A stretch of 64,000 nucleotides of DNA from Candidatus Sungiibacteriota bacterium (GTDB taxonomy: Bacteria > Patescibacteriota > Minisyncoccia > Sungbacterales > SURF-37): assembly GCA_016186145.1 (NCBI GenBank), contig JACPMF010000004.1, positions 345 through 64,344 on the forward strand, given 5' to 3'. Of this stretch, positions 2,484 to 63,681 are shown one piece after another; the first letter of the stretch is position 1, and each line of letters begins with the position of its first letter. The translations under genes were made by a program, and so were the position numbers. A model generated the notes under the pieces. It did not search any database, was not told the origin of the DNA, and saw nothing but the letters and a program-made list of their open reading frames with translations.

Positions 2484-2485
2484 GG

Positions 2486-36752: not shown

Positions 36753-36829
36753 TAGCAAAGCGTGAGAAAAACACAAAAAGGAAATGGACCTCGTCCGTGC
36801 CAGTTGGAACCAGGTTATACAGTTTCTGC

Positions 36830-40940: not shown

Positions 40941-42444
40941 ATCCTAAAATCTTATATGTTTCTCTGGCAAGACTGCCAAAATCTTTACTAATAAAAAGGT
41001 GTTTTAACAGTTGACGCCTAAATTGTTTATAACCACTACCTCCTCGATAGGAAAGTTTAAGAACAAGATCATCTTCGCTTAATCCTTTCGCCGCTGAAGA
41101 TCTCCAATCAAATTTAGACAATTCTTTGGCAAGTTTAAATACAAAATCAGCAAGTATTTTTTTCTTCTTTAAATCTTTAAGTTCCGATGCTGAGCTCGAC
41201 TCCGCGTTCGGATTCCACTCTTGTAATCTCAACTTTTCTCGATTGATAAATAGTAGATCATTTGTAACATTTAAAACCACAGAAATTCCTTGGTCATTGT
41301 TAAGCATTGTGTAAGGACCAACAAACGCAGGATCTCCGCTGACTGCCTTTTTATATTCTTGTTTCTTGGCATCGCGCAACTCAAGAGCCCACTTTGCCTT
41401 AGATTTTCTAACAGCGTCCCTTAATTCGTTCCAGAGATAAATAAGCAGGGCCGCTTGTTGGCTTTTATTCCAAGGAATTGCAATTTTATCCTGACCAACC
41501 GGTGCTCCAAATAGTCCGCCGATAGATATGCCTCTACCCTCAAATGACTTAACGTATGTTTTTAATAAAGCTCTTACCCAAGCTGCTTGAGTAACAGAGG
41601 GACCACCACTTTCCCCAAGCATGTTGATTCTATCGTACCAAGCACTATCCTTTTCTGACCATAGTATCTCAACTAGCTCTTGTGCTCGAGTTTCTCGGTA
41701 AACCTTATGGCCTTCAAATCTCTCAAGCCAATCTTCTGTCCGAAGTAAGGGGTACAGATCAAAAGCAAGGCTTGGGTTAATTCTTTTGGGCTTAATATTG
41801 ATTGTCCAAAAAAGATACGCTTGCCAACTTATATCAAGACCGTAAAATGCAACAACTGGAAGTTCATAATCTTCAGCAATACTTTTATCCTCAAACGCTA
41901 ACAGTCGGTGTTGCCCATCAATAATCTCAATGGGAAGTCTCTGTTTGGCCTGCCAGGTATTTGAATTATTAAAAGAAGCTGGCAACTGAACCTCGGCTAT
42001 GTTTCCTGCTAAATCCCTTACAGTCACTAGATCGTTCGGATCAACCCTTTCTCCATCACGCGTATCTTTGGCAGCTAAAATATTTACAACGATAGCTGTA
42101 GGTAACCAGCCTGGCTTTTGTAAATCATCAAACCTTTTCTCCTTACGTTGGGAATCAGTCAAATCTGACCAGGGATATCCGTATTTTATGTATTTCGCAA
42201 TTTTTTCTGATCGTGACGGTTCGTGAGCTCGTTGTAAACCGGTCCGCGACGCTAGACTCCTGCGATAGACACCTGAGAGTACCTGAAGTTGACGGGCGGA
42301 AAGTGAAAAAACGTAAAAATGATTTTGAGGCTCTCTACGATGCTCATTATTACTCCACTGAACAGAATCCCAGCCTTTAAGCCATTGGTTCACTTTTAAG
42401 GCCTGTATCTTATTTGGTTTGCGAGGCTGGGACTTCTTTTTCAT
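40909..42444 (-). CDS. DGQHR-domain protein (DndB-like, ParB-like nuclease superfamily)
   Basis: Exact IIDGQHRLLAF motif; 511 aa. Confidence 0.8.
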   Translation of the reverse strand: MKKKSQPRKPNKIQALKVNQWLKGWDSVQWSNNEHRREPQNHFYVFSLSARQLQVLSGVYRRSLASRTGLQRAHEPSRSEKIAKYIKYGYPWSDLTDSQRKEKRFDDLQKPGWLPTAIVVNILAAKDTRDGERVDPNDLVTVRDLAGNIAEVQLPASFNNSNTWQAKQRLPIEIIDGQHRLLAFEDKSIAEDYELPVVAFYGLDISWQAYLFWTINIKPKRINPSLAFDLYPLLRTEDWLERFEGHKVYRETRAQELVEILWSEKDSAWYDRINMLGESGGPSVTQAAWVRALLKTYVKSFEGRGISIGGLFGAPVGQDKIAIPWNKSQQAALLIYLWNELRDAVRKSKAKWALELRDAKKQEYKKAVSGDPAFVGPYTMLNNDQGISVVLNVTNDLLFINREKLRLQEWNPNAESSSASELKDLKKKKILADFVFKLAKELSKFDWRSSAAKGLSEDDLVLKLSYRGGSGYKQFRRQLLKHLFISKDFGSLARETYKILGFAKEDAKNAR

Positions 42445-42515
42445 ATAATTTATTTAGATTTTCTACATCTATATAATAGCAAGTTGAGATCTGCTAAGCA
42501 TGTTTCTTTATAATA

Positions 42516-42731
42516 TTAAAATTTGGCAAAAAAGTTTCCGATTTTTAAATTTAAAGCCTTCGCAATTTTTTCTATATTTTCCAATGTTATATTTTTCTCG
42601 GCTCTCTCAATCATGCCGATGTAAGTCCTATGAACGCCAGCGCGGGTGGCTAGTTTTTCTTGAGATAATCCTAATTTAGTTCGCTCCTCACGAACTCTTT
42701 TGCCAAATTTGATTAAGATTTCTCGTTTCAT
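42516..42731 (-). CDS. XRE-family HTH transcriptional regulator (controller-protein-like), first gene of the cassette operon
   Basis: 71 aa; canonical XRE HTH (LGLSQEKLATRAGVHRTYIGMIERAEKNITLENIEKIAKAL). Confidence 0.8.
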   Translation of the reverse strand: MKREILIKFGKRVREERTKLGLSQEKLATRAGVHRTYIGMIERAEKNITLENIEKIAKALNLKIGNFFAKF

Positions 42732-43032
42732 AGTTGATAACTATAGTATATGCACTTGCTAACTTTGGTGCTACATACTATAGTTAGCATAGTTTGAGGG
42801 GAGGAATTTCGGCGACCAAGCGAGCCGACCAGCAGGGCGGCGAGCCAGTCCTCCGGAGGAGGACTTTGTGGAAAACAGTAGAAGTGTGGAATGGGGGCGT
42901 AGCGTAGTGAAGTCGGACTTTGATTTTAGAGGTAGAAACGCAAGGTAGTCATTCCGAGGTAGGGTGAATGACTACCCGAATGACTAGGTAAATCAATCGG
43001 GATTTTGCTCAAACGGCGTCCGAACAGTCTCA

Positions 43033-45867: not shown

Positions 45868-47442
45868 TTAGCGGCTTTCCGGCTTCTGGTGGCGATACTT
45901 CGGCGTTACCCAAAAACCGAGGCGCCATCCGAACATAAGCCGTGTTTGCGCCTCAAGGCCGGGAAGAGAGCCAAAGAGAACTATCGTGAAAGGCAATAAT
46001 ACCCACTGCAAAACCATCCAAAGCCGCGTCCGGATGGGTTTCGACACCGGCCTCTTGGGAAGAAGCGAAACGGAAATAATGGCTGAGGTAACAAGCCCGA
46101 ACATCGCAAGCGTCATAATGCTTCTCGTGATCCGCGGCAGGTTATGAGAAAGCACCGTTGTCCCGAAACGCGTTCCTCCCAAAATCACCGGCAGCCAGCC
46201 GAGAAAGAACAGAATAAACGCATTCGTCGCCCACGCCCAAAATCCTTCAAGCTGATTGAACGCGAAATAAATTTTTTTCTGAAGCGGAATTTTTTTGTTT
46301 TTCCAAAACCCGAAAAGCGTGTAGGGCACATTCTCAACCCCCCACCCCCACCGCCGCTGCTGAATGTATACGTTCTTCGCGGTTTCGCGAAGAGTCGGCC
46401 CGACATTCGCATCCATGGAAACCGGATAGAAAAGCGGAACCGTGCGCCAATCGCCGTCGTAAAAAAGAAAAGCCTGCCAAAAAATCCGGGAATCTTCGGA
46501 AACGATATTCGTCTGCCAATATCCGATCTCAACAAGCGCTTTCATCGGCATGGAGTGAGAAGAAAAAGTAGTAAGCCGTTCTGGCCGGGACTGCTGCATC
46601 GTCTGCCAAAATGTTCCGGAGACCGCAACGACCCGGGAGAAAGCCGGCGAATCCCAAATGTTATTATTATAAACCGGAATCGGTTGATACGAAGAACGAA
46701 GCGGTTTTGAGGACGTCAGGTATTCATGGGTCAGGACAGAAAAGTATCCGGGAGGAATCTGGGTATCGATATCCAAAGAAGAAACAAGGACATGCTCGAG
46801 CGGAACGCTTTCTTTGTCGAGAATTTCTTCCTTTGCCCGCCGGGCCGCCCATGTCTCATTCGAACCTTTTCCGGGCATTTCGCCCGGAAGATTTGCCGGA
46901 TGGACAACCGCAAGGATCCTCCCGAAAAAAGCAGAGTTCTCCTTTTCTATATTTTCTGCTACCACCCGCGCCTCATCCCCCGCCCGTTCTTCGGCCGCAA
47001 GAACAACCCAAAGATTCTCATGCGGATAGTCCGAATTCCGTATCGCCTCTACAGCCTCGCTCACAACCACATACGACTCTTTATAGAACGGCAAAATAAC
47101 GAGATGGCGTATATCGCGCCATGAGCGCACCCCGAGTTCTGAAGGATACTCGGTTATCCCGTCAAGCTTTTCCCGCCAATTTATTTTCATCCTGCGACGC
47201 ATCTCGCGATACCCGGCGCGCAGATGAATCGACAAAAATACGGTTTTAAAAAGCCAGTAAAGATCAAAAGCGATTATAAAAAAACTGGTAAACACCGGGA
47301 GAAGCCATGAAAAAACAAAAATCCCCGCGATGGTAAACCACGCGACCCCTCCGGGCAGAACCTCAAAAAAACGATACAACAACCGATCTCCCTGACTTTT
47401 TATATCCGCGGCCCCGACCGCCTTCAAATAAGAGTCGTCCAT
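45868..47442 (-). CDS. family 2 glycosyltransferase, processive (cellulose-synthase-like)
   Basis: D,D,D and QQRRW(GWG) motifs plus multiple TM segments. Confidence 0.8.
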   Translation of the reverse strand: MDDSYLKAVGAADIKSQGDRLLYRFFEVLPGGVAWFTIAGIFVFSWLLPVFTSFFIIAFDLYWLFKTVFLSIHLRAGYREMRRRMKINWREKLDGITEYPSELGVRSWRDIRHLVILPFYKESYVVVSEAVEAIRNSDYPHENLWVVLAAEERAGDEARVVAENIEKENSAFFGRILAVVHPANLPGEMPGKGSNETWAARRAKEEILDKESVPLEHVLVSSLDIDTQIPPGYFSVLTHEYLTSSKPLRSSYQPIPVYNNNIWDSPAFSRVVAVSGTFWQTMQQSRPERLTTFSSHSMPMKALVEIGYWQTNIVSEDSRIFWQAFLFYDGDWRTVPLFYPVSMDANVGPTLRETAKNVYIQQRRWGWGVENVPYTLFGFWKNKKIPLQKKIYFAFNQLEGFWAWATNAFILFFLGWLPVILGGTRFGTTVLSHNLPRITRSIMTLAMFGLVTSAIISVSLLPKRPVSKPIRTRLWMVLQWVLLPFTIVLFGSLPGLEAQTRLMFGWRLGFWVTPKYRHQKPESR

Positions 47443-47787
47443 AACTTCAAGATTAACGCATGGGGAAGGAAATGAAATACCTCACCGCGAGTCCTTGGGG
47501 TGTATAACAATAAACATATTTAGGCATCAATTTAGCAAATTCGTCAATATTGACTACAACTAAGATGCTTCTACAGTTGGTATTAAGATATTGATGCTGG
47601 AAAGAAAAGGGCAACCAAACACTTAACGCGGTTAAGTGCTCGGCCAGTCTATTCCTAGGCAACATACCATCGCCGGTTTTTTGTTTACCAGTGCGATGAT
47701 CTTGTTCCTTAATAAAATTTCCAGTAGGGAAAACGTATCGAGGCTCAAACTTCTGACTTTGAATTCTGAAAAAAAGGAGGGTGCGAA

Positions 47788-49845
47788 ATGGAAATCCGAG
47801 ACAACGAACGACTCGCCTTCCACATTGGCGAAGTCGTGCGTGGAAGCAGAAAGTTTGAAAATGCTGCCACAAGCGTATCGCGGATGATTTTGGGACGAGG
47901 AGTAAAGAAAAGCACAAGAGCCGGGCAGACTACATTTGAGTTCGGCTTCTTCCGTGGAGGCCGCAAGCACGTTGTCGGCTGGTTCGATGAGATCAACGAC
48001 CTCGTTAACTTCGTGAAGGATGCCGCCGAAGGCGGGTCCTCGCAGGAAATGGCATTCGTGCTCGTTGGCGAACCCGGCAACGGAAAAACCTTCTTTGTTG
48101 AAAGCCTCTGCTCCGCGTACCGACAGTTCATTGCGCAACCGGAAAACAGAAGGTACACGTTCGAATTCGTCGGCTTGGAAGAACTGGGGCGCTACGGAAA
48201 TATTGGGGTCATCCAATCCCAAACCTTTGAAGACCCGCTCGTCTTGGCCATGAACCTTGGCGTGTCAAAAGATCAGAACAAGGAACGCCTGGCAAAGACG
48301 GGATTCGAAGACCACGACATCGACCGGCTCTATGGAGACTATCGCCCGCTTGGGGCATGCACGGAATTCATCTGGAACGATATTCTCACCCACTGCGACG
48401 GCGATGTGGAACGGGCGCTCGGATTCGTACGGATTGTGCCCGTACCGATCGCCGAAAGCCTGGGAACCGTTACCGGCAAATACTCGGCTCGCGACAAAAT
48501 CACTTCTTCCGCAACCGACCTCCTCGGAGAAGAAGACCTGTCGCGTCTTTTGAACCTTAAGGATACGTCCAATCCCTATAAGTACAACATCCGGAGGGGC
48601 GCGATCGCGCGTGTCGCCGGTGGCGGCATTCACTTTTCAGACGAGCTTTTCAAGAACAAAAAAGACCTTGTTCAGATTTACCTTCAGGTTATTCAGAACC
48701 GAACGATCGAACTCGACGGGTACCGCTGGCCCATTGATACGCTCATCATCGCAACCAGCAACAACTGGGAATACAACCGCTTTACCGGCGAACGAGAAGA
48801 GGCTCCGATCAAAGACCGCTGCCGCATTTGCTACGTTTCCCACAACACCGACTACAGGCTTCAACAAGTGCTGAACCGGTACGCGATCGGAAGCGAAAAG
48901 AAAGTCACCGTAACCGGCGAGGGGCTCCATGAGGATCCTAACCTTGTGTACGCCCTTTCGGTCGCCGTAACACTGACTCGTCTTCCGCATAGCGACAAGC
49001 TCACCCCGATTGAAATGATGAAGCTTGAAGCCGGAGAAACTGCCGGAGAGAAAAATGTCAAGACGCTGGCTGAAATAAAGGGAATGCTGAATGCCAACCC
49101 TGACGTTACAAAGCGTTGGGGGCAAAAAGGAATCGGACACCGCGGCCTCGGAAGAGTCGTCCAGATCATGCTTGCTATGCCGGAGACGCACGAAGGCAAA
49201 TGCCTTTTTGCGAAAGACTGCTTTGAGGCCGCTGAAAGAGAAATTCTTGACTATATCCCCGATGCGGTCGACCGCGAAAAATTCATGAAGGACCTGAAGG
49301 TTGCCCGGAAACTCTACCGAGGCGAGATCAAGACCTCGATCTTCAACGCTTATCGCGACGACCCGGAAGCCATCCGCAAGGATGTCATCGCCTATGTCAA
49401 CATGATCATCGGTATGGACTCCGACCAGCTGGGTCCGGACAAGATTTGGCGGTATCGTGATCCGCAAACCGGCGAGATGAAGGCGATCAAGGTTGAAGAA
49501 CGCTTCATCGACAGCGTTGAAAGCCGTCTCGGCCTTTCAACGAGAGAACGGAAAGAAACGTTCCGCACGTCCATCCGGAAGATTTACGGCCAGAAGGTTT
49601 CTACGGAACCGAACTACGACTTTATGGATAACGAGGCGCTCGTGAAAGCCGTAACCGACGTCCGCCTCGAATCCGACGTCGCCGGAGCCGCGAGTCTCGT
49701 CGGAGCGCTCGCAAACCGCGCGAATGAAGAAAACGTGCGCATCTACAACAGGATGATTGAAACCATGCTCAACAAGCTGAACTACTGCAGGACATGCGCG
49801 CAAAAAACCATTGAGTACTTCTGCGAAAAAACGGATGAGGACTAA
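47788..49845 (+). CDS. prkA: PrkA-family serine protein kinase (YeaG-like), paralog 1
   Basis: Walker A LVGEPGNGKT, 685 aa; collinear with YeaG (GGIHFSDE...IIATSN); strong Shine-Dalgarno AAGGAGG. Confidence 0.85.
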   Translation: MEIRDNERLAFHIGEVVRGSRKFENAATSVSRMILGRGVKKSTRAGQTTFEFGFFRGGRKHVVGWFDEINDLVNFVKDAAEGGSSQEMAFVLVGEPGNGKTFFVESLCSAYRQFIAQPENRRYTFEFVGLEELGRYGNIGVIQSQTFEDPLVLAMNLGVSKDQNKERLAKTGFEDHDIDRLYGDYRPLGACTEFIWNDILTHCDGDVERALGFVRIVPVPIAESLGTVTGKYSARDKITSSATDLLGEEDLSRLLNLKDTSNPYKYNIRRGAIARVAGGGIHFSDELFKNKKDLVQIYLQVIQNRTIELDGYRWPIDTLIIATSNNWEYNRFTGEREEAPIKDRCRICYVSHNTDYRLQQVLNRYAIGSEKKVTVTGEGLHEDPNLVYALSVAVTLTRLPHSDKLTPIEMMKLEAGETAGEKNVKTLAEIKGMLNANPDVTKRWGQKGIGHRGLGRVVQIMLAMPETHEGKCLFAKDCFEAAEREILDYIPDAVDREKFMKDLKVARKLYRGEIKTSIFNAYRDDPEAIRKDVIAYVNMIIGMDSDQLGPDKIWRYRDPQTGEMKAIKVEERFIDSVESRLGLSTRERKETFRTSIRKIYGQKVSTEPNYDFMDNEALVKAVTDVRLESDVAGAASLVGALANRANEENVRIYNRMIETMLNKLNYCRTCAQKTIEYFCEKTDED

Positions 49846-49930
49846 AAACTGAAACATGGTGTCCCTCTCTCTAGAGAGGGACTTATTTCCAAGGAAGTAT
49901 TTAAAAGCTATCTTAAAAATCATTTTTTCC

Positions 49931-50027
49931 GCGTTTTTCCGCGTAGCATTCCGCACTTATCCGCGGAGTCTCCGCGGAAGTGTGCAGATTGCAACGCAGA
50001 TTTATGCGGAAATTGAATTTTGAGATG
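49931..50027. repeat. about 95-bp inverted repeat, left arm, flanking the yeaH-like gene
   Basis: About 88% identical to the reverse complement of 51638-51728; contains the palindrome ccgcggagtctccgcgg. Confidence 0.7.
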
Positions 50028-50099
50028 AATTCTAGAATGAAATGCTTCTTAGGAAATGAGTAAAATCAATCTTTAAAATCTCTTTTTTCCGCATCTATA

Positions 50100-50212
50100 A
50101 TGCGAAACACGCTGATGATTTATGCGAATAAGACTAACTGTTCGCATAATTCGCATCATGTATTCGCATCGTTCGCATTGTAATGACACGGAAATTGAAA
50201 TTTGGGATGCTT
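50100..50212 (+). promoter_or_regulatory. array of TTCGCAT heptamers (2 inverted plus 4 direct) and a third partial copy of the repeat end, upstream of the yeaH-like gene
   Basis: aatgcgaaac, tatgcgaataag, then gttcgcataattcgcatcatgtattcgcatcgttcgcattg, then acggaaattgaaatttgggatg. Confidence 0.5.
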
Positions 50213-50268
50213 ACTCAGAGCACTTTTAAAATTTAAATTCCACACGACGAAAAGGGGGGAAGACCGCA

Positions 50269-51630
50269 ATGCGGAAAGACAGCAAGAAAGAAACGGCTGG
50301 AAATGAACACGCCACCAATCTTGATGTTCTCGGCATGGAACTCGCGCTTAAAGCGAGAATTGAAAGACGTATTGCGAACTGGAACGGACAAGGAGTTACC
50401 GGCGCTATCACCTCTTTGGAGTCCCTCCAGGACCTCTTGAAGAGGGACAAAGAAAGACAGCAGGACGGTTTTCCTTCCAAAATAAAATTCAGAAGGGTTC
50501 TCGCGGCAAATAATCGAGTAGTCAACGTTCCGTATGTCGACGAAGAAAAGCTGTTCCATGGACCATTTGAACCGAAGGGCGCAAAGCTTGTCGCCCAAAC
50601 CGCTGATTTTCTCGAGCTTCCGGACATTGACGAAGCCACCGGACACGGAGACGGCGATGTCGGCGACGTAATCGGTGAAGTGCCGATGCCCGGCAGGGGC
50701 GGTGGCGGCGATGACGGCGACGAAGGCGATGGAAACGGATCACAGCCCGGCGCCGGAGATGAAGACGCGGATCACGCGCTTGAAGAAGAAGCGTATGAGT
50801 TGGGAAGACGGCTGATGGAACAACTCAAGCTCCCCAACCTCAAAGACAAGGCAAGAAAAGTTCCTACCGATGAATACACCTACGATCTTACCGACCGCCA
50901 TCGCGGTTCGGGACAGGTTCTCGACAAAAAAGAAACATTGCGGCGCGTTGTCAAAACAAACCTGATTCTCGGCAGAATAGAAAAAGACGCCGTCGATACG
51001 AGAAAAATGATCGTCAGCCCGGGAGATCTGGTATTTCGAGTTCTTTCCCGAGAACGGGTCTGGAAAGCGCAAGCCTTGGCATGTTTTCTCCGAGACTACT
51101 CCGGTTCAATGTGGGGGGATCCTACAAAAGCCCTCGTATCCCAGCACCTTATGATTTACGCGTGGCTTCTGGTTCAATATGAAAAACGCGTTATCCCGCG
51201 ATTCTTCGTTCACGACCATAACGCGCGCGAAGTGAGCGCAAAAGAATACTTCGGACTCGGGTCTTACGGCGGAACACTTATCGCTTCCGGCTACAAAAAA
51301 ATCAACGAAGTAGTTGAGGGTGAAGGCCTTGAGAACGACTACAACATTTATGTCTTCCAAGGCACGGACGGCGATGACGGCGACGAAGGCGAATTCGCCC
51401 TTCCGGAGCTCAACAAAATCCTGAATTATGTAAGTCGCATGGGAGTCACCCTGTTTAAACATCCTTACTACACAAGCCAGGGCCAGAAAACAATCTTTGA
51501 GCAATACATTGAAAAAGGCGGCATCCTGGAAAGAAAGGATGTCTTCCGCATGCATACCATGCCGCGATATACCAACGTGACCGAAGAGATGAATGTTGAA
51601 GCGCTTCGCACGCTCATTGCCCAAGACTAA
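50269..51630 (+). CDS. DUF444 family protein (YeaH/YhbH-like, vWA-type), PrkA partner
   Basis: Position between prkA and spoVR; Gly/Asp-rich low-complexity segment typical of YeaH. Confidence 0.75.
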   Translation: MRKDSKKETAGNEHATNLDVLGMELALKARIERRIANWNGQGVTGAITSLESLQDLLKRDKERQQDGFPSKIKFRRVLAANNRVVNVPYVDEEKLFHGPFEPKGAKLVAQTADFLELPDIDEATGHGDGDVGDVIGEVPMPGRGGGGDDGDEGDGNGSQPGAGDEDADHALEEEAYELGRRLMEQLKLPNLKDKARKVPTDEYTYDLTDRHRGSGQVLDKKETLRRVVKTNLILGRIEKDAVDTRKMIVSPGDLVFRVLSRERVWKAQALACFLRDYSGSMWGDPTKALVSQHLMIYAWLLVQYEKRVIPRFFVHDHNAREVSAKEYFGLGSYGGTLIASGYKKINEVVEGEGLENDYNIYVFQGTDGDDGDEGEFALPELNKILNYVSRMGVTLFKHPYYTSQGQKTIFEQYIEKGGILERKDVFRMHTMPRYTNVTEEMNVEALRTLIAQD

Positions 51631-51637
51631 ACCTAAT

Positions 51638-51728
51638 CTCAAATTCAATTTCCGTGTAAATCCGCGTTGCAATCTGCGTGTTTCCGCGGAGACTCCGCGG
51701 ATCAATGCGGAATGCTACGCGGAAAAAC
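51638..51728. repeat. about 95-bp inverted repeat, right arm, flanking the yeaH-like gene
   Basis: See 49931-50027. Confidence 0.7.
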
Positions 51729-51829
51729 GCTGATATAGAACTTTTGAGATGGCTTCAAGAAGCCAAGGTTGAGCCGGGCCCCGACTCCGTCGGGGCTTTT
51801 CTATAACGGTTACAGAAAGAAAGGAGGAG

Positions 51830-53551
51830 GTGATGGAGCTTTTGAGCCAAAGCATGAAAGGTGAAATGGAAGCGTGCAAGAGGCGGGCAAGAGAAGCCGG
51901 TCTCGTGTTTCAAGACAACACCCTCGAATATGTCGTAACCAACCAAGACATGCTGGAGTTAAGCCCTCGAGTGATGATCCCGACCCTCTACGACTATTGG
52001 GCGTTTGACGTCGAAGTCCACCAAAACCGATGGATGTATGACATCCATCCGCACAATCCCTATGAGACCGTAATCAACACGAGACCTCCGATTTCCTTCT
52101 ACAACCAGGATAATGCGGACTGGTTTAACGTGATGATTTTCTATCATGTCCTGGGACACATCGACTTCTTCCAGAACAATACGTTCTTCCGCAGGACATG
52201 GGACGACGATTTCTGCGGGCAAGCCCTCGCGGATAAACGGCTCATCAACCGGATCCGCGCGGAACACGGAGACCAAAAACGATGGGTCGACTATCTGATT
52301 GAATTTGCGCGCGCTATCGACAATTTGGTGGGATACCACCAGGAGCTCAAAGAAGGCGACGAAGCGGAACAACCGGAAATTTTCGGCGCATTTTCTGAAA
52401 AAGCGGATTTTTACTTCGGGCAATTCCTGAAAGAGCTCTACGAAGCAAAAAGAGTCAAGCTCGAATTCTACTACGAAGAAATCGAACGCTACAACCGCTG
52501 CGTGAGGACATTCGGGAAAAAGCAGGGCGAACTCGCCTTCTTCGAAGACAACACGTTCAGAAGCAAGCTCCCCGAATTCAACGATGTATTCAAGAAACGG
52601 AAAGAAAAGGGCGAGAAACCGAAGCCCAAAGACATTTTTGAGCACCTCGCGGAGCGTTCGGACTCCCTGAACCAGGAAGAGAACCGGTGGATGAAAGAAG
52701 TGCTGCAGGTAATCAGAAGAACGTCTCTCTACTTCCAGCCGCAGATGAGAACTAAGATCGCGAACGAAGGTTGGGCAAGCTTATGGCACCAAACCCTCTT
52801 CATGGCAGATGAACGAATGAGCACCCATGAAGTAGATTTCGCAAGAGTAGATTCGGCGGTCACTTTTGATCCGCGGCTCGGAATCAATCCGTACGCCGCA
52901 GGCAAGCACCTTTTTGAATTCATCGAGGCGCTTGCCCGAAAGGGACGCCTTTCACCGGAATACCGTCTGCTCAAAAACATAGATACGCGAAAGAAGTACG
53001 ACCGGGATTGCGGACAAGCTGCCGGGCGAAAAGCGCTCTTTGAGGCACGGAGGCATTTTGACGACTATCTCCTGGTCAACTTCCTTTCTGATGAAGACTT
53101 CCAGGATTTTGTGGATGAACACAAGCTATTCATTGCAGGAGTCCGGCCAAGCCGCGAAAGATGGGACAGGGCTGAAATCTACATCAAATCGCGGAGCGGA
53201 AAAGAATACCGACGCCTTCTCAACCGAATGCTCTACCATCCGCCATATGTTGATTTCTCCGGAGCGAAAGCAAAAGACGGAGAACTGTATCTTGATCATG
53301 TGTACGAAGGCAGGTCGCTCTTCAGAAAGTACATCGGCCCGGTCCTAATCGGACTCGAATTCCTTTGGGGACGTCAGGTAAAACTCGAAACGACGGAATA
53401 TGAAGAAACCCAACCGAAAAACTGGTGGGAGTGGAGAAGTTCCCAGTACCAGCCGGAATACAAAAAAATCAGGGTCCTTTACGCCTGTGACAAGCGAAAA
53501 ATAACGAGAACGATTCTCGACCAAACTACCACGGATTCCTATGGAGGCTAG
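51830..53551 (+). CDS. spoVR: SpoVR/YcgB family protein
   Basis: N-terminal region with HVLGHIDFF-type motif; 573 aa. Confidence 0.85.
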   Translation: MMELLSQSMKGEMEACKRRAREAGLVFQDNTLEYVVTNQDMLELSPRVMIPTLYDYWAFDVEVHQNRWMYDIHPHNPYETVINTRPPISFYNQDNADWFNVMIFYHVLGHIDFFQNNTFFRRTWDDDFCGQALADKRLINRIRAEHGDQKRWVDYLIEFARAIDNLVGYHQELKEGDEAEQPEIFGAFSEKADFYFGQFLKELYEAKRVKLEFYYEEIERYNRCVRTFGKKQGELAFFEDNTFRSKLPEFNDVFKKRKEKGEKPKPKDIFEHLAERSDSLNQEENRWMKEVLQVIRRTSLYFQPQMRTKIANEGWASLWHQTLFMADERMSTHEVDFARVDSAVTFDPRLGINPYAAGKHLFEFIEALARKGRLSPEYRLLKNIDTRKKYDRDCGQAAGRKALFEARRHFDDYLLVNFLSDEDFQDFVDEHKLFIAGVRPSRERWDRAEIYIKSRSGKEYRRLLNRMLYHPPYVDFSGAKAKDGELYLDHVYEGRSLFRKYIGPVLIGLEFLWGRQVKLETTEYEETQPKNWWEWRSSQYQPEYKKIRVLYACDKRKITRTILDQTTTDSYGG

Positions 53552-53667
53552 TTTCTAAGACGCCGGCAATTCGTACGCGCGAAACCCGCAAGCGCGGGGC
53601 AGCGCATGCGAATTGCTGGCTTTTCTAAAAGACCGGCGGCCGTTAGTAAAACGAAAGGAGGAAAACC

Positions 53668-55869
53668 ATGCCCGCGGTGAAAGACGCCCTGACATATCTC
53701 GGATCTGAAATCGGAAAAACGGAAAAAGTGGTAACCTTAAGCTTCGAAGAATATCTTGACCTTGCCGCACGAGAACCGGGACGAGTATTGCGAAATATCT
53801 TCCAACTCTTTTACGACATGGTCAACGAATGCGTGGACAAAGGGACCGATGAGTACCCTGATGATCCGGAATCAATCGGTTTTGTAAAATACGATTGCAC
53901 CCGGCTTTTTGCCGAAAGAGCGGACAATCCATTCTTCGCCGACCGGCTTTTCGCGAACCGGTTCATACGCCAGATTGAAAGTCTTCGGCAGGGTTTCCAG
54001 CAAAACCGCATCTATGCCTACGAAGGCCCTTCCGGCTGCGGCAAAAGCACATTTCTGAACAATCTTTTGAGAACCTTTGTCGCTTACACCAACACAAGAG
54101 CGGGACAAATCTTCGAGCTTGTCTGGGAGATAGACGGAACTCTTTTTTCTCAAGATGCCGGAGCCTCCAAGAAACTGGTTGTTCCGTGCCCGAGCCATGA
54201 CTACCCGATTTTGGTCGTCCCGAAAGAACACCGGCCTGAATTCTTGAGAAAACTCCTCCCGGACGGGGAAGCCAAGCAAAAGATTCTCGGAAGCAAGGAA
54301 TACGAATGGCTTTTCACCGGAGAAGTGTGCACCGTTTGTAAGTCAATTTTTGAGCTCGCGCTCGAAAAACTCGGTTCTGTCGAAAAAGTATTCACAATGC
54401 TCCGGGCGAGAACCTATAAATTTGATCGGCGCCTCGGGGAAGGCATTAGCGTCTTCAATCCGGGCGACCAATCGGTATGGGTCGGAAACGACGGCAAACC
54501 GACCGGCGGCGTTTTCACCAACAAACCTCTACAACAAGATCTCGATCGGCTATTCGGCGCAGGAAGGGTCAAGTATGTCTTCTCTTCTCTCGCGCAGACC
54601 AACAACGGCATCCATGTGCTGATGGATGTAAAGGGATACAACAAGGCGCGGCTTCTCGAGCTTCACAATGTCATCAGCGAAGGCGTACATAAAGTGGGCG
54701 GTGTAGAAGAAGGCGTTACGGCCCTTTTCTTTGCCCTCATGAACCCGGAAGACAAACGAGTCATCACCGACGAGAAAATGGAGTCCTTTGAAGGAAGAAT
54801 CCAATACAACAAAATCCCCTATGTACTGGCACCCGACACCGAAGTGGATATCTATCGCAGCATTTTCGGATCCTCGATCGTGGCAAGCTTTCTCCCGCGA
54901 GTCCTTGAAAACTTCGCGCGCGTAATTATTTCTTCCCGCATGAACATGGAGTGCAAGCCGCTGAAAGAGTGGATCCCGGATGTCGCAAAATACAAAAAGT
55001 ACTGCGATGAAAGCGGCTTATTGCTTCGCATGGCAATCTATATGGGAGTTATCCCGAACTGGCTTTCCGAAGAAGACAGAAAAAAATTCGCCGCTCCGGT
55101 ACGCCGGGCATTGATCGCAGAGGGCGAAAACGAAGGTGGCAAAGGATTTTCCGGCAGAGACTCTTTGCGTCTCTTTGGCGAATTTTTCAGCCGCTACAGC
55201 GGGCGGCCAAGCTTGATTACCATGGAGAATGTTGAAGACTTCTTCAAGCACCGCATCGGAAGAGAACGTCGCGATGAATTCATACCGAAAAACTTCCTTG
55301 CGGCACTCATCGGAGCATATGATTATGCGATCTTGAACGAAATGAAAGAAGCCATGTACTTCTACAACAAAGAACGGATCTCGAGAGATATCCTGAACTA
55401 TCTCCATGCGGTCAATTACGAAGTCGAGACAAAGATACAATGCCCCTTTACCGGCGAAGAAATGGAAGTAACAATGGTCTTCCTCAAGCTTATGGCAAGC
55501 CGTATTGCCGGAAGAGAAATGAGCGATTCCGACGCCTTGAAATTCGCGCAGGATATCCAGAAGAAGTTTACGGTCGCTGCCGCCAAAGGAGGCGGCATAA
55601 CGGAAACAGAACTTTATAATGATCTTTTTGCCGCTTACGTGAGAAATCTTAAGGAAAAAGTGCTGCAACCGTTTGCCAAGAATGCAAATTTCCGCGAAGC
55701 CATCAGGGCGTTCGGAACAAGAGAGTTCGAAACGTTCGATACCCGGCTGAAAGAACACGTAATCGCTATGATCAAAAACATGATGGAGAAGTTCGGGTAC
55801 ACCGAACAGGGAGCAAAAGAAATCTGTCTTTACGTGATAGACAAAAACCTAGCAGAAAAGTATTCATAA
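53668..55869 (+). CDS. PrkA-family serine protein kinase, paralog 2
   Basis: Walker A YEGPSGCGKSTFLNNLL (compare YeaG LLGPVGGGKSSL); 733 aa; collinear PrkA core. Confidence 0.75.
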   Translation: MPAVKDALTYLGSEIGKTEKVVTLSFEEYLDLAAREPGRVLRNIFQLFYDMVNECVDKGTDEYPDDPESIGFVKYDCTRLFAERADNPFFADRLFANRFIRQIESLRQGFQQNRIYAYEGPSGCGKSTFLNNLLRTFVAYTNTRAGQIFELVWEIDGTLFSQDAGASKKLVVPCPSHDYPILVVPKEHRPEFLRKLLPDGEAKQKILGSKEYEWLFTGEVCTVCKSIFELALEKLGSVEKVFTMLRARTYKFDRRLGEGISVFNPGDQSVWVGNDGKPTGGVFTNKPLQQDLDRLFGAGRVKYVFSSLAQTNNGIHVLMDVKGYNKARLLELHNVISEGVHKVGGVEEGVTALFFALMNPEDKRVITDEKMESFEGRIQYNKIPYVLAPDTEVDIYRSIFGSSIVASFLPRVLENFARVIISSRMNMECKPLKEWIPDVAKYKKYCDESGLLLRMAIYMGVIPNWLSEEDRKKFAAPVRRALIAEGENEGGKGFSGRDSLRLFGEFFSRYSGRPSLITMENVEDFFKHRIGRERRDEFIPKNFLAALIGAYDYAILNEMKEAMYFYNKERISRDILNYLHAVNYEVETKIQCPFTGEEMEVTMVFLKLMASRIAGREMSDSDALKFAQDIQKKFTVAAAKGGGITETELYNDLFAAYVRNLKEKVLQPFAKNANFREAIRAFGTREFETFDTRLKEHVIAMIKNMMEKFGYTEQGAKEICLYVIDKNLAEKYS

Positions 55870-55885
55870 CCGTGAATGACTAAAA

Positions 55886-55915
55886 CACAAAACACCGGCA
55901 CGCCGGTGTTTTTTA
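55886..55915. terminator. bidirectional rho-independent terminator
   Basis: aaaacaccggcacgccggtgttttttatt; T-runs on both strands. Confidence 0.6.
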
Positions 55916-56160
55916 TTGGGTGCGCCTGGATTTGAACCATCAACCTAAAATAAAAATGGGTCAGGATGGACTCGGACCATCGATCCCCAAGGTACCGCGC
56001 CCGACTTCGCCTTGACGAATAAATTTTGCGAGCGCCTGGATTCGAACCAGGAACCCCGGAGGTATAAGCTCCGTGCTCTAACCGTTGAGCTACGCTCGCG
56101 TAGCGGCGAAGTCAAGGCGGGCGGGTAAGCTCGATGCTTTAGCCGCTAAGCTACTGACCC
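55916..56160 (-). pseudogene. tRNA-like half-fragments bracketing an intact tRNA-Ile(UAU): 5-prime half at 56101-56160, 3-prime half at 55957-56026, and an extra 3-prime fragment at 55916-55956
   Basis: 5-prime half GGGTCAGTAGCTTAGCGGCTAAAGCATCGAGCTTACCC... and 3-prime half ...GATGGTCCGAGTCCATCCTGACCCA have complementary acceptor strands. Their inner ends also base-pair with each other (GACTTCGCC with GGCGAAGTC, CGCCC with GGGCG). Fragment GGTTGATGGTTCAAATCCAGGCGCACCCA duplicates the tRNA-Ile 3-prime end. Confidence 0.45.
56027..56099 (-). tRNA. tRNA-Ile (anticodon UAU)
   Basis: GCGAGCGTAGCTCAACGGTTAGAGCACGGAGCTTATACCTCCGGGGTTCCTGGTTCGAATCCAGGCGCTCGCA; anticodon loop CTTATAC. Confidence 0.8.
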
Positions 56161-58070: not shown

Positions 58071-58189
58071 AATTAAAATCGTACTATATTTTCGTCACGC
58101 ATTCAAGAGGGCGACTCTTCTCCTGCAAAACGAAGGCCGATCAATAAAACGGAGATCGATCAATTCTCTCATTTCTCTCATCCCCGCCA

Positions 58190-58234: not shown

Positions 58235-58831
58235 TTACCAGACTCTGAAATGACGGCGGATGGCAACCTCCCCATTCCCGAGTGACGAGGTTTCGAAAAA
58301 GCAAACATGGCGATTAATATCTAAAAATTGAACAAGAAAATCAATTTCATCCTCACAGGGGTAGGGGTACGCGAAAACGCTTTTTTGTAAACCGAATAGC
58401 CCCAAATCTTTGAGCCGGTCGCTAAAAATTCTCCTCTCCTTCTTCTTATTTTCCGGGATGTCGAAAATGACCACCCGCCACTTCTTATCCCACCGCCGCG
58501 GTTTTTCCGGTAACCGCAACGCATCAAATTCAAATTTACGCAGTTTCTTCCGACCGCTTTCCGTAATTACAATATATGTTTCATTTCCGCGTTGTTCGTA
58601 TTCCACATATCTTCTCTTCCGTAGACGCTCAATACCCCTTTGGAGCTGCCATTGCCCGTATTCGCGACGCAATCGCGCCGGATCACTCCGAAGAATCGGC
58701 GCAAGCAATATTCCCATATTCGGCGCCACCAACATTGATGCCACAACCGCACCGCCGCCGACAATCTTCAAAATATCCAGCGCAATAGATCCGTAATGAA
58801 TATCTCTCCCCATACAAAACGAACCTATCAA
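58235..58831 (-). CDS. membrane-anchored winged-helix plus Cas2-fold-like (PaaX-C-like) domain protein
   Basis: KKWRVVIFDIPENKKKERRIFSDRLKDLGLFGLQKSVFAYP resembles the Cas2/PaaX C-terminal pattern; N-terminal TM. Confidence 0.4.
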   Translation of the reverse strand: MIGSFCMGRDIHYGSIALDILKIVGGGAVVASMLVAPNMGILLAPILRSDPARLRREYGQWQLQRGIERLRKRRYVEYEQRGNETYIVITESGRKKLRKFEFDALRLPEKPRRWDKKWRVVIFDIPENKKKERRIFSDRLKDLGLFGLQKSVFAYPYPCEDEIDFLVQFLDINRHVCFFETSSLGNGEVAIRRHFRVW

Positions 58832-59064: not shown

Positions 59065-60405
59065 CTACTCGTCGTCCTGGCGGCTCGAATCGCCGCGGCG
59101 ACCGCGACCACCCTTGCCACCCTTGCGACCCTTGGCCTGGCGGGGTCCCCGGTCCTCGTCGGACCGGTGGTAGCGCGGCGTCTGCGGCTTGAACTGCCGC
59201 TGGTCGCCGGCCGGGGTCTGCGACTGGAACTTCCAGCCGCCGGCCTTCCGGAAGAGAACCATCAGGAAGACCATCGGCCTCCCGTCTTCCATGGCCTGCA
59301 TGCCGTCGAAGCTGTACTTGAGCTTCCACTGGAAGAGCGTTGCGGCTCGCGCCTCACGCTCCTCTGTCGCCGGCTTCGCAGTGAACCGGGCGAGCCCAGG
59401 CCACACCGAGCCCACCGCGCCGAGGAGCTCGCCCTTGGCGATCCCCTGGCCGTCCACGCCGTGGTACCGAACCCACCCGGTGCCCTCGAGCTGATAGCCC
59501 GACCGCGTGTCTTTGAAGTCTTGCTCACGCTTGAGCACGAACTCCACGACATCACCGATGTTGAGCTGGCCGGCGTCCAGATCGGCGAGCGTCTTGCCCT
59601 CGACGGGCTTGAACTGCTCGCGGTACTTCGCGAGAAGCGCTTCGCTCGCCTCACGCTTCTCAGCGTAAGTCTCCTTGGTCACCCTCTGATGCGTGACCCA
59701 CGCGCCGATCAGCGTATCCGCGACCTTCGGGTCATACCCTTCGGGCTTCGGCTCGTCCTTCCCGAAGTACCTCTTCGCGAAGTGCCGATAGGCTCTGGTG
59801 TTGCCGACGACCGGCAACGACCAGATCGTCTGCGGCTTCGCGGGCGGCCGCGGGGCATCCGGGATGTCCGCCTCTTCGTCGCCCTTCTCGACGACGGCGC
59901 CGTACATGGCGTCGTAGTCGGCCTTCTCGGCCTCGTACTTCACCATCTTCGGCTTCCATTCGTCCCAGGCCGTGCGATTGGCCTGCTTTTCCGCATCGTC
60001 CACCCCACGCATGATGCCGCGGGCGATGAGGTCGTCGATGACCTCGTGCGCCTCGGGCAAGGTGTAGAGCCCGGCGATGAACGCCGAGTACACCTCCGGA
60101 AGCGAACGGATCTTGGCCATCACGACGGCGATCTGCTCGCGGAACGACACCGCTGCGGCATCGTCGTGCTTCTTCTCGGCCTCGCGGAGGCCGTTCTTCC
60201 TCTCGGCAAGAGCCGTGAGGAACTTTTCCGTCAGCGCATCCCGCTTGACTTCGTCAGCGAGGACGCGCTTCACCGGCGCCGGCTTCGGCGTTCCGGTGGT
60301 CACCTGCTGGGCCGCTGGCCGCGGCCTCTCCACGATCGCGATCGTCGGCAGTGCGACGACCGCTTCGAACGCCTTCTCGATCTCCTTCAGGTCCATCAGG
60401 TCCAT
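59065..60405 (-). CDS. hypothetical protein with a C-terminal RG-rich tail, in a high-GC (about 65%) island
   Basis: 446-aa ORF with normal amino-acid composition; the overlapping plus-strand ORF is R/L/P-rich antisense junk. Confidence 0.5.
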   Translation of the reverse strand: MDLMDLKEIEKAFEAVVALPTIAIVERPRPAAQQVTTGTPKPAPVKRVLADEVKRDALTEKFLTALAERKNGLREAEKKHDDAAAVSFREQIAVVMAKIRSLPEVYSAFIAGLYTLPEAHEVIDDLIARGIMRGVDDAEKQANRTAWDEWKPKMVKYEAEKADYDAMYGAVVEKGDEEADIPDAPRPPAKPQTIWSLPVVGNTRAYRHFAKRYFGKDEPKPEGYDPKVADTLIGAWVTHQRVTKETYAEKREASEALLAKYREQFKPVEGKTLADLDAGQLNIGDVVEFVLKREQDFKDTRSGYQLEGTGWVRYHGVDGQGIAKGELLGAVGSVWPGLARFTAKPATEEREARAATLFQWKLKYSFDGMQAMEDGRPMVFLMVLFRKAGGWKFQSQTPAGDQRQFKPQTPRYHRSDEDRGPRQAKGRKGGKGGRGRRGDSSRQDDE

Positions 60406-62067: not shown

Positions 62068-63681
62068 TCAAATAATTTTAGCTTCTCTCAAAACCTGTCT
62101 AACGCTTTTATTACAGTTATGAATTTTCTCCAAAGCCAGCTTTGCTTGTTTCTTGCTGATAAAGCCCACCGTAACTTCGCGCGCTAGACGCGTAGCGTCT
62201 GGATGAAAACCGAGCATTCGTCTTGCTTTATTTTCTGCCGCTTTCGCAAAAAGACAAGAGTTCGCATTTGATTCAATCAACCTTTCGCCTCGTGGAATTT
62301 TCCACCCCAATTTCCTTAAAATCTTCTCCGTATCTTTAATTGTTCTTTGCAAAAGAAAGGGCAGGTGAACGATATAGACAGGCGGCTTGTTTTTGAATGG
62401 TTGTAATTTCCGAGTTGCCGAAAAAACAAACTTTTTTGACTCACCATCTTGGCTTAATCCAGCCCATTCGTTAATACCTAAAATAATCACACCAACACCA
62501 TGTTTTTGCGCCTCTCCGTAGTATGAACGAATAACAAGCCGCCTGCATAATTGGCAAGTTCTTATAAATGGAATTTTGTGCTGACATTTTGCCGAATAGT
62601 GCCTCCTGCCCTCCACATACCATTTTCTAAATTTTTCTTTTAACTCTAGCGAATCACGTTCATCGTATAAGTCAGCCGTTTTTTCGAAACAAATACGATC
62701 AACTGGTCGCATATATTTTCTCGCATCGATTTTTTCGTAATCAACATCAAGCTGTTTTGCTACTTGTTTTGCCCTCTGAAAAATATGTTTTGGGTAATAG
62801 CGTGTATCAAGTGAAAAAGCCAAAGGCGTAAATCCCATACGTTTAGCTTCATGGAGAGTGGCAGTGCTGTCTTTGCCGCCAGATATACCAACCATTGCAT
62901 CGTATTTGCCACGACCAGAACTCCTAAGCGAAAGTAGAAATTCTAACTCTTTTCTCAAATGTTCTTTGCTAAAGTTTTTTTCGTATCTTTCACAAACATC
63001 ACATAAACCGGATTTCTCTATCGTGCTAGACATATTAGTGCTGACATTTACGCATTTCTTGCACTCTACCGCTTCAACCAATGCTTTGATTTGATTAACG
63101 ATTTCTTTCTTGATTGTAACAGCCGTGTTGAAAGAAATATGAGCGATTTTTTCTACTTTATTTGTCGAAAAAAGACGCTCCTCAATTTGCCGTTCTTTTT
63201 CTGCTTCTTTTTGTGAGAAACTTTCTCGCTTGGAGACACGCACCGAAAGATGTTTGTCGGGAGTTTTCAAATAAACAACAAGGTAGCCATTCTTTTTGAA
63301 ATGAGTTGAATTTTTATAACCCCTGATTCCTGCGATTACAATAAACTTTTTAGAAAATGTTTTTTGATGAATATGAATTATTGTTTTCGCAATAACCGAC
63401 GAGGAATAACGGTTTTTGAGATGAGAGAAAAAATTGCGAGCTTCCTCGCGATCAATTTTCTGTTTAATCTTTTTCCCGTAGAGTTTATTTATTTGTTGGA
63501 TAAAACCACTTTCATTTTCTGACAACTTTTCCTTAATGGAAGCGGCGGGGTTTATAACCGTATTAAACGCCTCGATATATTTTGCATCAAGAAAAGAAGC
63601 CAAGAACAATTTGGCTATGGTTGTCTTGCCGCTTCCGGGGGCTCCAAAAACCGCTATTCCTTTGTATTTTCTTTTTATCAT
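62068..63681 (-). CDS. fusion protein: N-terminal P-loop kinase-like domain plus zinc ribbon plus TtcA/TtuA(Ncs6)-like PP-loop ATPase
   Basis: Walker A GAPGSGKTT; CKKC...CDVC zinc ribbon; PP-loop VGISGGKDS; then CQLCRRL (compare TtcA CSLCSRL). Confidence 0.65.
   Translation of the reverse strand: MIKRKYKGIAVFGAPGSGKTTIAKLFLASFLDAKYIEAFNTVINPAASIKEKLSENESGFIQQINKLYGKKIKQKIDREEARNFFSHLKNRYSSSVIAKTIIHIHQKTFSKKFIVIAGIRGYKNSTHFKKNGYLVVYLKTPDKHLSVRVSKRESFSQKEAEKERQIEERLFSTNKVEKIAHISFNTAVTIKKEIVNQIKALVEAVECKKCVNVSTNMSSTIEKSGLCDVCERYEKNFSKEHLRKELEFLLSLRSSGRGKYDAMVGISGGKDSTATLHEAKRMGFTPLAFSLDTRYYPKHIFQRAKQVAKQLDVDYEKIDARKYMRPVDRICFEKTADLYDERDSLELKEKFRKWYVEGRRHYSAKCQHKIPFIRTCQLCRRLVIRSYYGEAQKHGVGVIILGINEWAGLSQDGESKKFVFSATRKLQPFKNKPPVYIVHLPFLLQRTIKDTEKILRKLGWKIPRGERLIESNANSCLFAKAAENKARRMLGFHPDATRLAREVTVGFISKKQAKLALEKIHNCNKSVRQVLREAKII

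Follow-up and report, generated by a model that had tools for sequence, protein, structure and literature searches.

A Parcubacteria version of the prkA1–DUF444–spoVR–prkA2 operon with Shine-Dalgarno-led genes and a candidate riboswitch-like leader

Why do four adjacent genes of a Parcubacteria genome carry strong Shine-Dalgarno (SD) sites when most genes around them carry none? The question arises in a 64,000-nucleotide (nt) stretch of a Candidatus Sungiibacteriota bacterium (contig JACPMF010000004.1, assembly GCA_016186145.1), hereafter the window. An initial annotation of the window had recognized a PrkA–YeaH(DUF444)–SpoVR stress-response module with a second PrkA gene, and had attributed its SD sites to either acquisition from an SD-using donor or a distinct expression regime. 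We find that the module itself is unexceptional, one more case of an operon type that is known and widespread, and that the SD contrast is real, is conserved in Parcubacteria and is not explained by recent transfer. What appears to be new is an uncatalogued riboswitch-like leader RNA, which would link PrkA operons, MoxR and proteases in the Candidate Phyla Radiation (CPR). Taken as a whole, the sequence comparisons make it somewhat probable that the region is the Parcubacteria version of a widespread prkA1–yeaH(DUF444)–spoVR–prkA2 operon, led by an RNA element and translated from SD-started cistrons.

The open reading frame (ORF) list and Pfam searches bear out the annotated module (Table 1). 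PrkA1 matches PF06798 (101 bits) and PF08298 (39.1 bits), both above the 25-bit Pfam cut-off. The DUF444 protein matches PF04285 (100 bits, cut-off 27) and scores slightly below the cut-off of NCBIfam NF003712 (391 versus 421 bits). SpoVR exceeds the Pfam cut-offs of PF04293 (179.8 bits) and PF24755 (30.4 bits). The spoVR gene likely starts at the ATG at 51833 rather than the GTG at 51830, which makes its SD spacing 2-3 nt longer. The predicted second, divergent PrkA-like gene of 733 amino acids (aa) also holds up in profile searches, with 133 bits against PF06798 (cut-off 25); its match to PF08298 reaches 23.2 bits (cut-off 25) and is limited to the last third. Repeated 9-nt units within the DUF444 gene (50652-50738 and 51360-51392) encode acidic Gly/Asp-rich, GDDGDEGD-like stretches. 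No solved structure was matched by sequence for YeaH or SpoVR.

The two PrkA proteins share no similarity detectable by BLASTP, but aligning their profiles reveals homology (hhalign probability 95.5%, 537 columns at 19% identity); this alignment and the structural match below support full-length homology of PrkA2 to PrkA1. Protein Data Bank (PDB) entry 9xip, a ‘serine protein kinase’, matches PrkA1 (E = 4e-12) and residues 25-613 of PrkA2 (E = 2e-14), and it matches Escherichia coli YeaG at 7.5e-51. PrkA1 scores 22.4 bits against the NCBIfam YeaG equivalog PRK15455 (cut-off 576), and PrkA2 does not match this model at all. Because of these PRK15455 scores and the weak 9xip matches (1e-12 to 1e-14), PrkA1 and PrkA2 are, by sequence, two subfamilies that each stand apart from classical YeaG/PrkA. 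The Walker A motif of PrkA1 is GEPGNGKT, and residues K100/T101 and D285/E286 are invariant among 59 PrkA1 homologues. In PrkA2 the motif is GPSGCGKS; K126/S127 and D320 are invariant among 82 sequences, in which the residue after D320 is I or V and never E. Judged from these alignments, both paralogues retain the P-loop lysine together with a Walker-B-like acidic residue. PrkA2 is 100% identical to a protein annotated from a Candidatus Sungbacteria metagenome-assembled genome (MAG), and its best relatives, at 58-76% identity, come from Niyogibacteria, Yanofskybacteria, Nealsonbacteria and similar Parcubacteria.

We identified a PrkA2-type gene in at least 581 species by scanning one genome per species, and read the gene order in the 80 best loci. 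The order prkA1–DUF444–spoVR–prkA2 is almost invariant among these loci, and a second PrkA is therefore standard in this operon type. Seventeen distinct Parcubacteria loci and about 60 non-CPR loci have the four-gene order, the latter in Desulfobacterota, Geobacter, Gemmatimonadota, Anaerolineales and Chitinispirillaceae. In the window and more than 70 loci, prkA, DUF444 and spoVR are adjacent on one strand and kept as a unit. By gene order, then, the two-PrkA layout is the standard form of a widespread operon variant and is not special to this genome. The four-gene operon appears to be a sister type of the starvation/stress module represented by E. coli yeaG-yeaH/ycgB and Bacillus prkA-yhbH/spoVR. 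In three Desulfobacterota contigs (L022, L023 and L032), a second PrkA2 or a whole second module lies in tandem directly upstream of prkA1. In the literature searched, PrkA or SpoVR is linked with CPR only as a spoVR ‘sporulation gene’ in a Patescibacteria MAG (PMC11484240).

The surroundings of the module are also partly conserved, and a context of FtsH, tRNA-Ile and RecG recurs across phyla. In the window, a tRNA-Ile with anticodon UAU (56027-56099, minus strand) directly follows prkA2, beside two degenerate tRNA-like fragments (55916-55985). CPR conserves this synteny: L001, L104 and L110 also have tRNA-Ile(UAU) beside a PrkA operon, often together with FtsH. A small PaaX_M protein (Cas2-like fold) is encoded near the module both in the window (58235-58831, minus strand) and in a Niyogibacteria genome (L001, 13935-14525).

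On its other side, the module adjoins a GT2 glycosyltransferase gene. A GT2 gene neighbours the module in 15 of the 17 CPR loci, whereas none of about 60 non-CPR loci has one beside it; its position and orientation relative to the PrkA module vary among the CPR loci, and 12 of the 15 orthologues match PF13632. By this distribution, GT2 is a CPR-specific companion of the module. Its QxxRW motif is typical of processive synthases, which may link the module to envelope polysaccharide synthesis.

We defined a strong SD as a duplex of -9 kcal/mol or stronger with CACCUCCUUU. All four module genes in the window have one (duplexes of -11.3 to -12.3 kcal/mol), versus 6 of 46 other window genes (Fisher p = 0.0009), although the four sites are not independent because the genes form one operon. 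The initial annotation had described canonical AAGGAGG-type sites on all four genes; the sites are indeed all strong, but that of DUF444 is G-rich and non-canonical. It had also described most other genes as SD-less, and this is borne out by DprA, TopA, RelA/SpoT, ParB, GyrA, HtrA, FtsH and Maf, all confirmed by Pfam and all SD-less. The regions upstream of about 23 SD-less window genes are about 80% A+T with nearly no G at -10 to -4, and TATAAT-like words often stand a few bases before the ATG (for example at 21749-21765, 23716-23732 and 58071-58090). This composition suggests that leaderless or very short-leader mRNAs are the default start mode of the SD-less genes.

The contrast extends beyond the window. 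Across 18 CPR loci, strong SDs precede 44 of 67 module genes (66%) and 23 of 193 flanking ORFs (12%; odds ratio 14). Of the 52 CPR module genes with GGAG, 46 have it at 6-10 nt from the start codon, and several CPR sites are AAAGGAGGTG, which is complementary to the canonical 16S tail over a full 10 nt. Strong SDs precede 76-83% of CPR spoVR and prkA2 genes. In homologous non-CPR operons, strong SDs are found on 73% of first genes and on only 7-12% of internal genes. These conserved SDs in orthologous Parcubacteria operons, together with a conserved leader before prkA1, lend support to the earlier suggestion of a distinct expression regime. Neither the window nor any other locus compared contains an rRNA from which a 16S 3' end could be read.

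That leader contains a structured RNA motif of about 75 nt, which we first saw by comparing the regions upstream of CPR prkA1 genes in the window and in L009, L010 and L017. Its core lies upstream of PrkA1 in these three loci and in L018, and a pattern scan of metagenomes yielded 29 further contigs with the motif. The copy before prkA1 (copy A) consists of P1, GGAAA, P2, GCAA, a P3 hairpin (CACTTAAC-GCG-GTTAAGTG), CCAG, P2', CTA and P1'. More generally, P2 is GRA.AGG pairing with UCU.AUYC, P3 is variable, CCAG or CGAC precedes P2', and CUA and P1' follow. A covariance model gave six matches in 1.23 Mb of loci, all directly upstream of prkA1 or MoxR: four CPR loci and copy A before prkA1, and a second window copy (copy B) before MoxR.

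Covariation supports the fold. Among 27 distinct sequences, 85.9% of alignment cells are paired, and each of the five P1 pairs and four P3 pairs varies on both sides. Although any of the four combinations would have satisfied the search pattern at R14:Y74, this pair is A-U in 16 sequences and G-C in 11, with no mismatches. Covariation scores 0.495 versus 0.188 +/- 0.02 for shuffles (0 of 500 reach it) and at most 0.21 for slid controls, and a model-based alignment gave the same result.

The motif appears to be restricted in its distribution and absent from existing catalogues. The covariance model found it in none of the non-CPR loci scanned, and filters-off scans of ten further CPR PrkA loci found neither the motif nor weaker copies. 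Rfam 15 has no family for it: searches of the window at the gathering threshold, of 47443-47800 at E <= 10 and of 12 motif loci at E <= 1 returned tRNAs and chance matches only. We found no native CPR riboswitch in the searchable literature. A resemblance to the glycine aptamer was considered and found no support; the GGAAAG..AAGGGCAA and CUCU words are alike by eye only, and Rfam returned no riboswitch family. That prkA1 itself has a conserved, uncatalogued RNA leader thus adds to the case for an expression regime of its own.

The position of the motif relative to predicted terminators suggests how it may act. All 30 distinct motif instances are followed by a T-run within 160 nt. In 25 of the 30, the 5' arm of the predicted intrinsic terminator lies inside the motif (17 in the 5' core and P3, 8 in the P2'/P1' strand), and because of this overlap the conserved fold and the terminator would be mutually exclusive. 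The layout fits a transcriptional ON switch. At copy B, a terminator-like hairpin overlaps P1' and is consistent with the same layout, and in the relative L010 a good terminator occupies the position that corresponds to the T-run after copy A.

The metagenomic instances always have the orientation of the next gene and lie 60-135 nt upstream of it. Genes found after them include prkA1 of the four-gene type and canonical PrkA/YeaG-type genes followed by spoVR. Others encode secreted proteases, among them HtrA-like serine proteases, S41 peptidases, an M48-like peptidase and HExxH (DUF4932-like) proteins. The rest encode a putative metallopeptidase (DUF6647/6782), a protein resembling MotA/ExbB and some proteins of no assigned family. 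Two of seven downstream protein clusters looked up carry a name, from Lloydbacteria and ‘Parcubacteria group’ MAGs, and several motif contigs share the FtsH and tRNA-Ile(UAU) synteny with the window. The MoxR operon behind copy B is the other SD-led operon of the window, with sites GAAGGAGA and AAAGGAGA. We tentatively propose that the RNA is a new riboswitch class, confined to Parcubacteria/CPR, that senses a metabolite of starvation or proteotoxic stress, for example an alarmone such as (p)ppGpp, and by antitermination switches on a regulon of PrkA-YeaH-SpoVR modules, MoxR modules and secreted proteases; we regard this as possible, at less than even probability. A full-length RelA/SpoT homologue (HD, RelA_SpoT, TGS and ACT domains; 10237-11985, plus strand) is encoded 36 kb from the module, so the organism can probably make (p)ppGpp, one candidate for the leader signal.

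Further structure lies within the operon. The spacers of the module are 423, 202 and 116 nt long in the window, and they are likely secondary insertions because module genes of relatives lie 2-200 nt apart or overlap. A hairpin followed by a U-rich tract stands after each of the four genes. The ‘hairpin-rich leader’ that the initial annotation placed before prkA2 (53552-53667) is real as a structure, but it is one long hairpin located after spoVR; as a single hairpin followed by UUUUCU, it looks like a terminator or attenuator.

Two palindromic elements occupy the prkA1–DUF444 spacer, and an inverted copy of the first follows DUF444. The arms of element 1 are 93 nt long and 89% complementary. 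Its core, TCCGCGGAG(A/T)CTCCGCGGA, occurs at only two sites in 64 kb. Element 2 contains a TTTAAA-N18-TATAAT promoter-like word; in a sigma-70 promoter scan, matches including this one were not above chance. The elements look like insertions of the MITE or REP type (miniature inverted-repeat transposable elements or repetitive extragenic palindromes) that inflate the operon spacers. Elsewhere in the window, low-complexity intergenic palindromes built of short repeated words lie at 27232-27296, 27946-28033, 21760-21850 and 23740-23810 and in the P3 insert of copy B, with words that differ from locus to locus (AACCAACAAC/GTTGTTGGTT, GAATTATGAAT/ATTCATAATTC, ATTCGC/GCGAAT).

Table 1. Coordinates of the module, its SD sites, RNA elements and neighbouring genes in the window.
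Feature	Position	Strand	Description	Evidence or score
GT2 glycosyltransferase gene	45868-47442	-	membrane protein, QxxRW motif (QQRRW), transmembrane segments, no SD	
RNA motif copy A	47592-47666	+	prkA1 leader	covariance model, 52.8 bits, E ~2e-11
T-run after copy A	47677-47682	+	TTTTTT, preceded by only a weak hairpin (3-bp stem)	
SD of prkA1	47774-47781	+	AAGGAGGG, 6 nt before ATG	-12.3 kcal/mol
prkA1	47788-49845	+	PrkA-family P-loop ATPase, 685 aa	Pfam PF06798, PF08298
Terminator-like hairpin after prkA1	49861-49882	+	GTCCCTCTC-TCTA-GAGAGGGAC then TTATTTCC	-20.4 kcal/mol, z = -2.9
Palindromic element 1	49920-50030	+	~100 nt, imperfect, centred on CCGCGGAGTCTCCGCGG	-50.4 kcal/mol, z = -7.1
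Palindromic element 2	50073-50209	+	ends shared with element 1, interior rich in GCGAA/TTCGC	
SD of DUF444	50254-50259	+	GGGGGG (site AAAGGGGGG), 9 nt before ATG	-11.4 kcal/mol including G-U pairs
yeaH/yhbH homologue (DUF444)	50269-51630	+	453 aa, acidic GD-rich repeats	Pfam PF04285
Inverted copy of element 1	51635-51750	+		-56.7 kcal/mol, z = -8.6
Terminator-like hairpin after DUF444	51778-51802 (stem 51778-51796)	+	GCCCCGAC-TCC-GTCGGGGC then TTTTCT	
SD of spoVR	51821-51830	+	AAGGAGGAGG	
spoVR/ycgB homologue	51833-53551	+	572 aa from ATG at 51833	Pfam PF04293, PF24755
Long hairpin between spoVR and prkA2	53562-53626 (hairpin 53562-53620)	+	followed by UUUUCU	-49 kcal/mol, z = -4.3
SD of prkA2	53655-53661	+	AAGGAGG, 6 nt before ATG	-11.9 kcal/mol
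prkA2	53668-55869	+	deep PrkA paralogue, 733 aa	Pfam, hhalign, PDB 9xip
Terminator hairpin ending the module	55889-55918 (stem to 55912)	+	AACACCGGC-ACGCCGGTGTT then TTTTTATT	
RNA motif copy B	4412-4539	-	long P3 insert, upstream of MoxR operon	covariance model, 51.4 bits
MoxR-DUF58 operon	969-4329	-	MoxR (AAA_3) 3322-4329, DUF58 2486-3325, 504-aa protein 969-2483	Pfam

The kinship and composition of the module speak to its origin. The CPR copies are monophyletic for each of the four proteins, and their mean identity to one another is 0.59-0.65 versus 0.65-0.81 among the sampled non-CPR sequences. Module GC content (0.49-0.53) equals the window average, and GC at third codon positions (GC3) is 0.55-0.65, somewhat higher than in core genes. 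Relative synonymous codon usage (RSCU) correlates with the rest of the window at 0.35-0.55 for the module, 0.58-0.77 for core genes and about 0 for a low-GC island; codon usage, which the initial annotation had named as a check on acquisition, thus deviates mildly and is far from island-like. Given CPR monophyly, divergence, host-like GC and this mild codon deviation, a recent import is unsupported, and the proposed acquisition from an SD-using donor fails in its recent form. An ancient transfer between Desulfobacterota-like bacteria and an ancestor of Parcubacteria is conceivable.

Other parts of the window look more foreign. The low-GC stretches at 36000-43000 (island 37.5-42.4 kb) and 62068-63681 have a GC content of 0.38-0.40 and codon-usage correlations of -0.2 to 0.13, and are probably recently acquired islands. 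An ORF at 59065-60405 (minus strand) has a GC content of 0.66 and a GC3 of 0.88, where the genome has a GC content of 0.48. It carries a strong SD (CAGGAGGGG), matches no Pfam family and is overlapped by a long ORF on the opposite strand; it may be foreign or mis-called.

Could the SD sites lack present regulatory meaning and be leftovers of a module acquired from SD users such as Desulfobacterota? Most of the nearest non-CPR homologues do belong to Desulfobacterota, with PrkA1 still 56-67% identical, and the GC3 and RSCU values given above are slightly off those of core genes. Against this, the CPR copies form deep monophyletic groups, and unselected 7-nt motifs would not persist with the right spacing in 18 lineages. 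The truly foreign-looking island of the window also differs clearly in composition. Since internal genes of the closest non-CPR operons mostly have no strong SD, the CPR SDs cannot be inherited relics; the higher frequency in CPR spoVR and prkA2 indicates that they were gained or strengthened. We consider this explanation very improbable. Alternatively, SDs might be a structural necessity behind long spacers and leaders, where neither translational coupling nor a leaderless start is available, with no special regime or regulon. The A/T-rich, G-poor regions with TATAAT-like words before SD-less genes, the unusually long module spacers and the long leaders of both SD-led window operons are all consistent with such a necessity. 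Yet across the 18 CPR loci, strong-SD frequency is independent of the distance and orientation of the upstream gene, at 20-25% in every class with module genes included, and relatives with 2-16-nt spacers or overlaps still bear SDs, which makes this account unlikely as well.

For the RNA, the alternative to a metabolite riboswitch is a site at which an antiterminator or attenuator protein binds, or else a gene for a small RNA (sRNA) with its own terminator; we judge this possible but rather unlikely. The motif is one long irregular hairpin with conserved internal loops, like many protein-binding leaders; a regulon of proteases and AAA+ ATPases resembles heat-shock and envelope-stress regulons, which are usually under protein control; and a terminator directly after the motif would also suit a stand-alone sRNA. 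The constant orientation and 60-135 nt distance relative to the downstream gene argue the other way, as do the two different terminator architectures that compete with the fold, as is usual for riboswitch expression platforms. Nor did the loci compared show a conserved regulator gene nearby. That the four genes form an anti-phage defence island of P-loop ATPase, vWA-like protein and ‘kinase’ is scarcely credible: the resemblance lies only in generic domain types present in some defence systems, no PADLOC model matches any of eight proteins tested, and gene order and the FtsH, tRNA-Ile and RecG context are conserved across phyla, whereas defence islands are typically variable.

Several points weigh against our preferred account of an RNA-led, SD-started stress operon. 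Folding gave no convincing terminator for copy A. Only 5 of 18 CPR PrkA loci have the motif, and filters-off scans did not find it in the three closest relatives either; the module can therefore exist without it. Invariance of the motif core is partly circular because the search pattern fixed the core nucleotides of the 29 metagenomic instances; the unbiased sample is the five loci found via the protein. The SD statistics ignore shared ancestry and are not phylogenetically independent, and the start codons of flanking ORFs, DUF444 and non-CPR genes that enter them were assigned mechanically. A CCTCCT anti-SD was found in only 48% of Parcubacteria 16S genes (PMC9297842). On the protein side, an AlphaFold model of PrkA2 (18 sequences) has a pLDDT of 69.9, with the ATPase part below 50, and Foldseek of this model against the PDB returned nothing below E = 0.27. 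Bacillus anthracis PrkA showed neither protease nor kinase activity in vitro (PMC13001217).

With these reservations, the following mechanism can be proposed. The leader RNA would be a cis-acting ON switch whose folded form is stabilized, with a small-molecule signal of stress or starvation as the most likely stabilizer. In the stabilized leader the terminator could not form, and the operon would be read through. Each cistron would then be started by SD/anti-SD pairing on an mRNA with long structured leaders and spacers, and housekeeping genes would use A/T-rich, possibly leaderless starts. In this genome, expression is probably graded from gene to gene by the hairpins with U-tracts that follow each gene and by two palindromic insertions. 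The products may form an ATP-driven proteostasis or signalling machine, composed of the PrkA1/PrkA2 AAA+-type pair, YeaH and SpoVR, that helps the cell survive nutrient limitation. We favour a role in proteostasis because of the predicted co-regulation with MoxR and many proteases.

Published work is consistent with a function in starvation. The genes yeaG, yeaH and ycgB show co-fitness in six bacteria (bioRxiv 10.1101/072470), and YeaG is needed in sustained nitrogen starvation in E. coli (PMC4664914). A starvation, stress or sporulation role is known for E. coli, Bacillus and Rhizobium (PMC4664914, PMC9512850, PMC3188799), and Bacillus subtilis PrkA has been reported as a Lon-like ATP-dependent protease (PMC9512850).

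PrkA/YeaG–YeaH–SpoVR is among the most widespread stress modules of disputed function, with kinase, Lon-like protease and neither all having been proposed. Its retention in genomes below 1 Mb, with SDs that neighbouring genes lack, suggests importance for the survival of ultra-small, host-dependent bacteria. Through the shared leader, three subfamilies of PrkA operon would belong to the same regulon as MoxR and proteases of the HtrA, S41, M48 and HExxH types, providing independent and testable evidence for a role in proteostasis. If this is true, the PrkA/YeaG module would be tied to proteolysis rather than kinase signalling, and the mRNAs of the regulon would be translated by SD pairing in genomes where SD use is otherwise scarce. 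The ligand of the leader would reveal what CPR bacteria sense, and the element might be turned into a genetic tool for them. Comparing SD-led with SD-less genes also offers a way into translation start in Parcubacteria, half of which reportedly have no recognizable anti-SD.

The operon can be compared with several known systems. Four-gene operons of Desulfobacterota, Geobacter and other bacteria have the identical order and 45-67% protein identity to the CPR version; unlike it, they have a strong SD at the first gene only, no GT2 neighbour and no copy of the RNA motif. E. coli yeaG-yeaH with ycgB and B. subtilis prkA-yhbH with spoVR contain the same three Pfam families in the same order as the window, and have been tied to sporulation, starvation and stress (PMC4664914, PMC9512850, PMC13001217). 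They differ in that neither window PrkA is a YeaG orthologue and prkA2 is an integral fourth gene. The CPR operon is further set apart by its GT2 companion, its SD-led cistrons and, in part of the lineages, the RNA leader. Haloarchaeal genomes also have genes annotated prkA1 and prkA2, and Haloquadratum prkA2 is among the highest-expressed genes (PMC9684190); the likeness to this operon, two PrkA paralogues per organism, is recognized at the level of annotation.

ON riboswitches such as the ppGpp and PRPP members of ykkC subtype 2 and the glycine riboswitch resemble the leader in their aptamer-like fold, covarying stems, competing terminator and varied genes of one theme. The leader differs from them in being a single irregular hairpin with no match in Rfam 15. 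As for translation, Bacteroidota are SD-poor, with a few SD-led genes such as rpsU. The genome studied here is similar in that most genes are SD-less with A-rich upstream regions and a minority have strong SDs; it belongs to a different phylum, and its SD-led set consists of stress and accessory operons. Finally, chaperone operons of the MoxR AAA+/vWA type (DUF58, BatA-like) place a P-loop/AAA+ ATPase next to a partner protein, as does the prkA operon, where YeaH would contain, by database annotation, a vWA-like fold. PrkA differs from MoxR by an extra large C-terminal domain (PF06798), and the MoxR-DUF58 operon of the window shares with the prkA operon both the RNA leader and SD-led starts.

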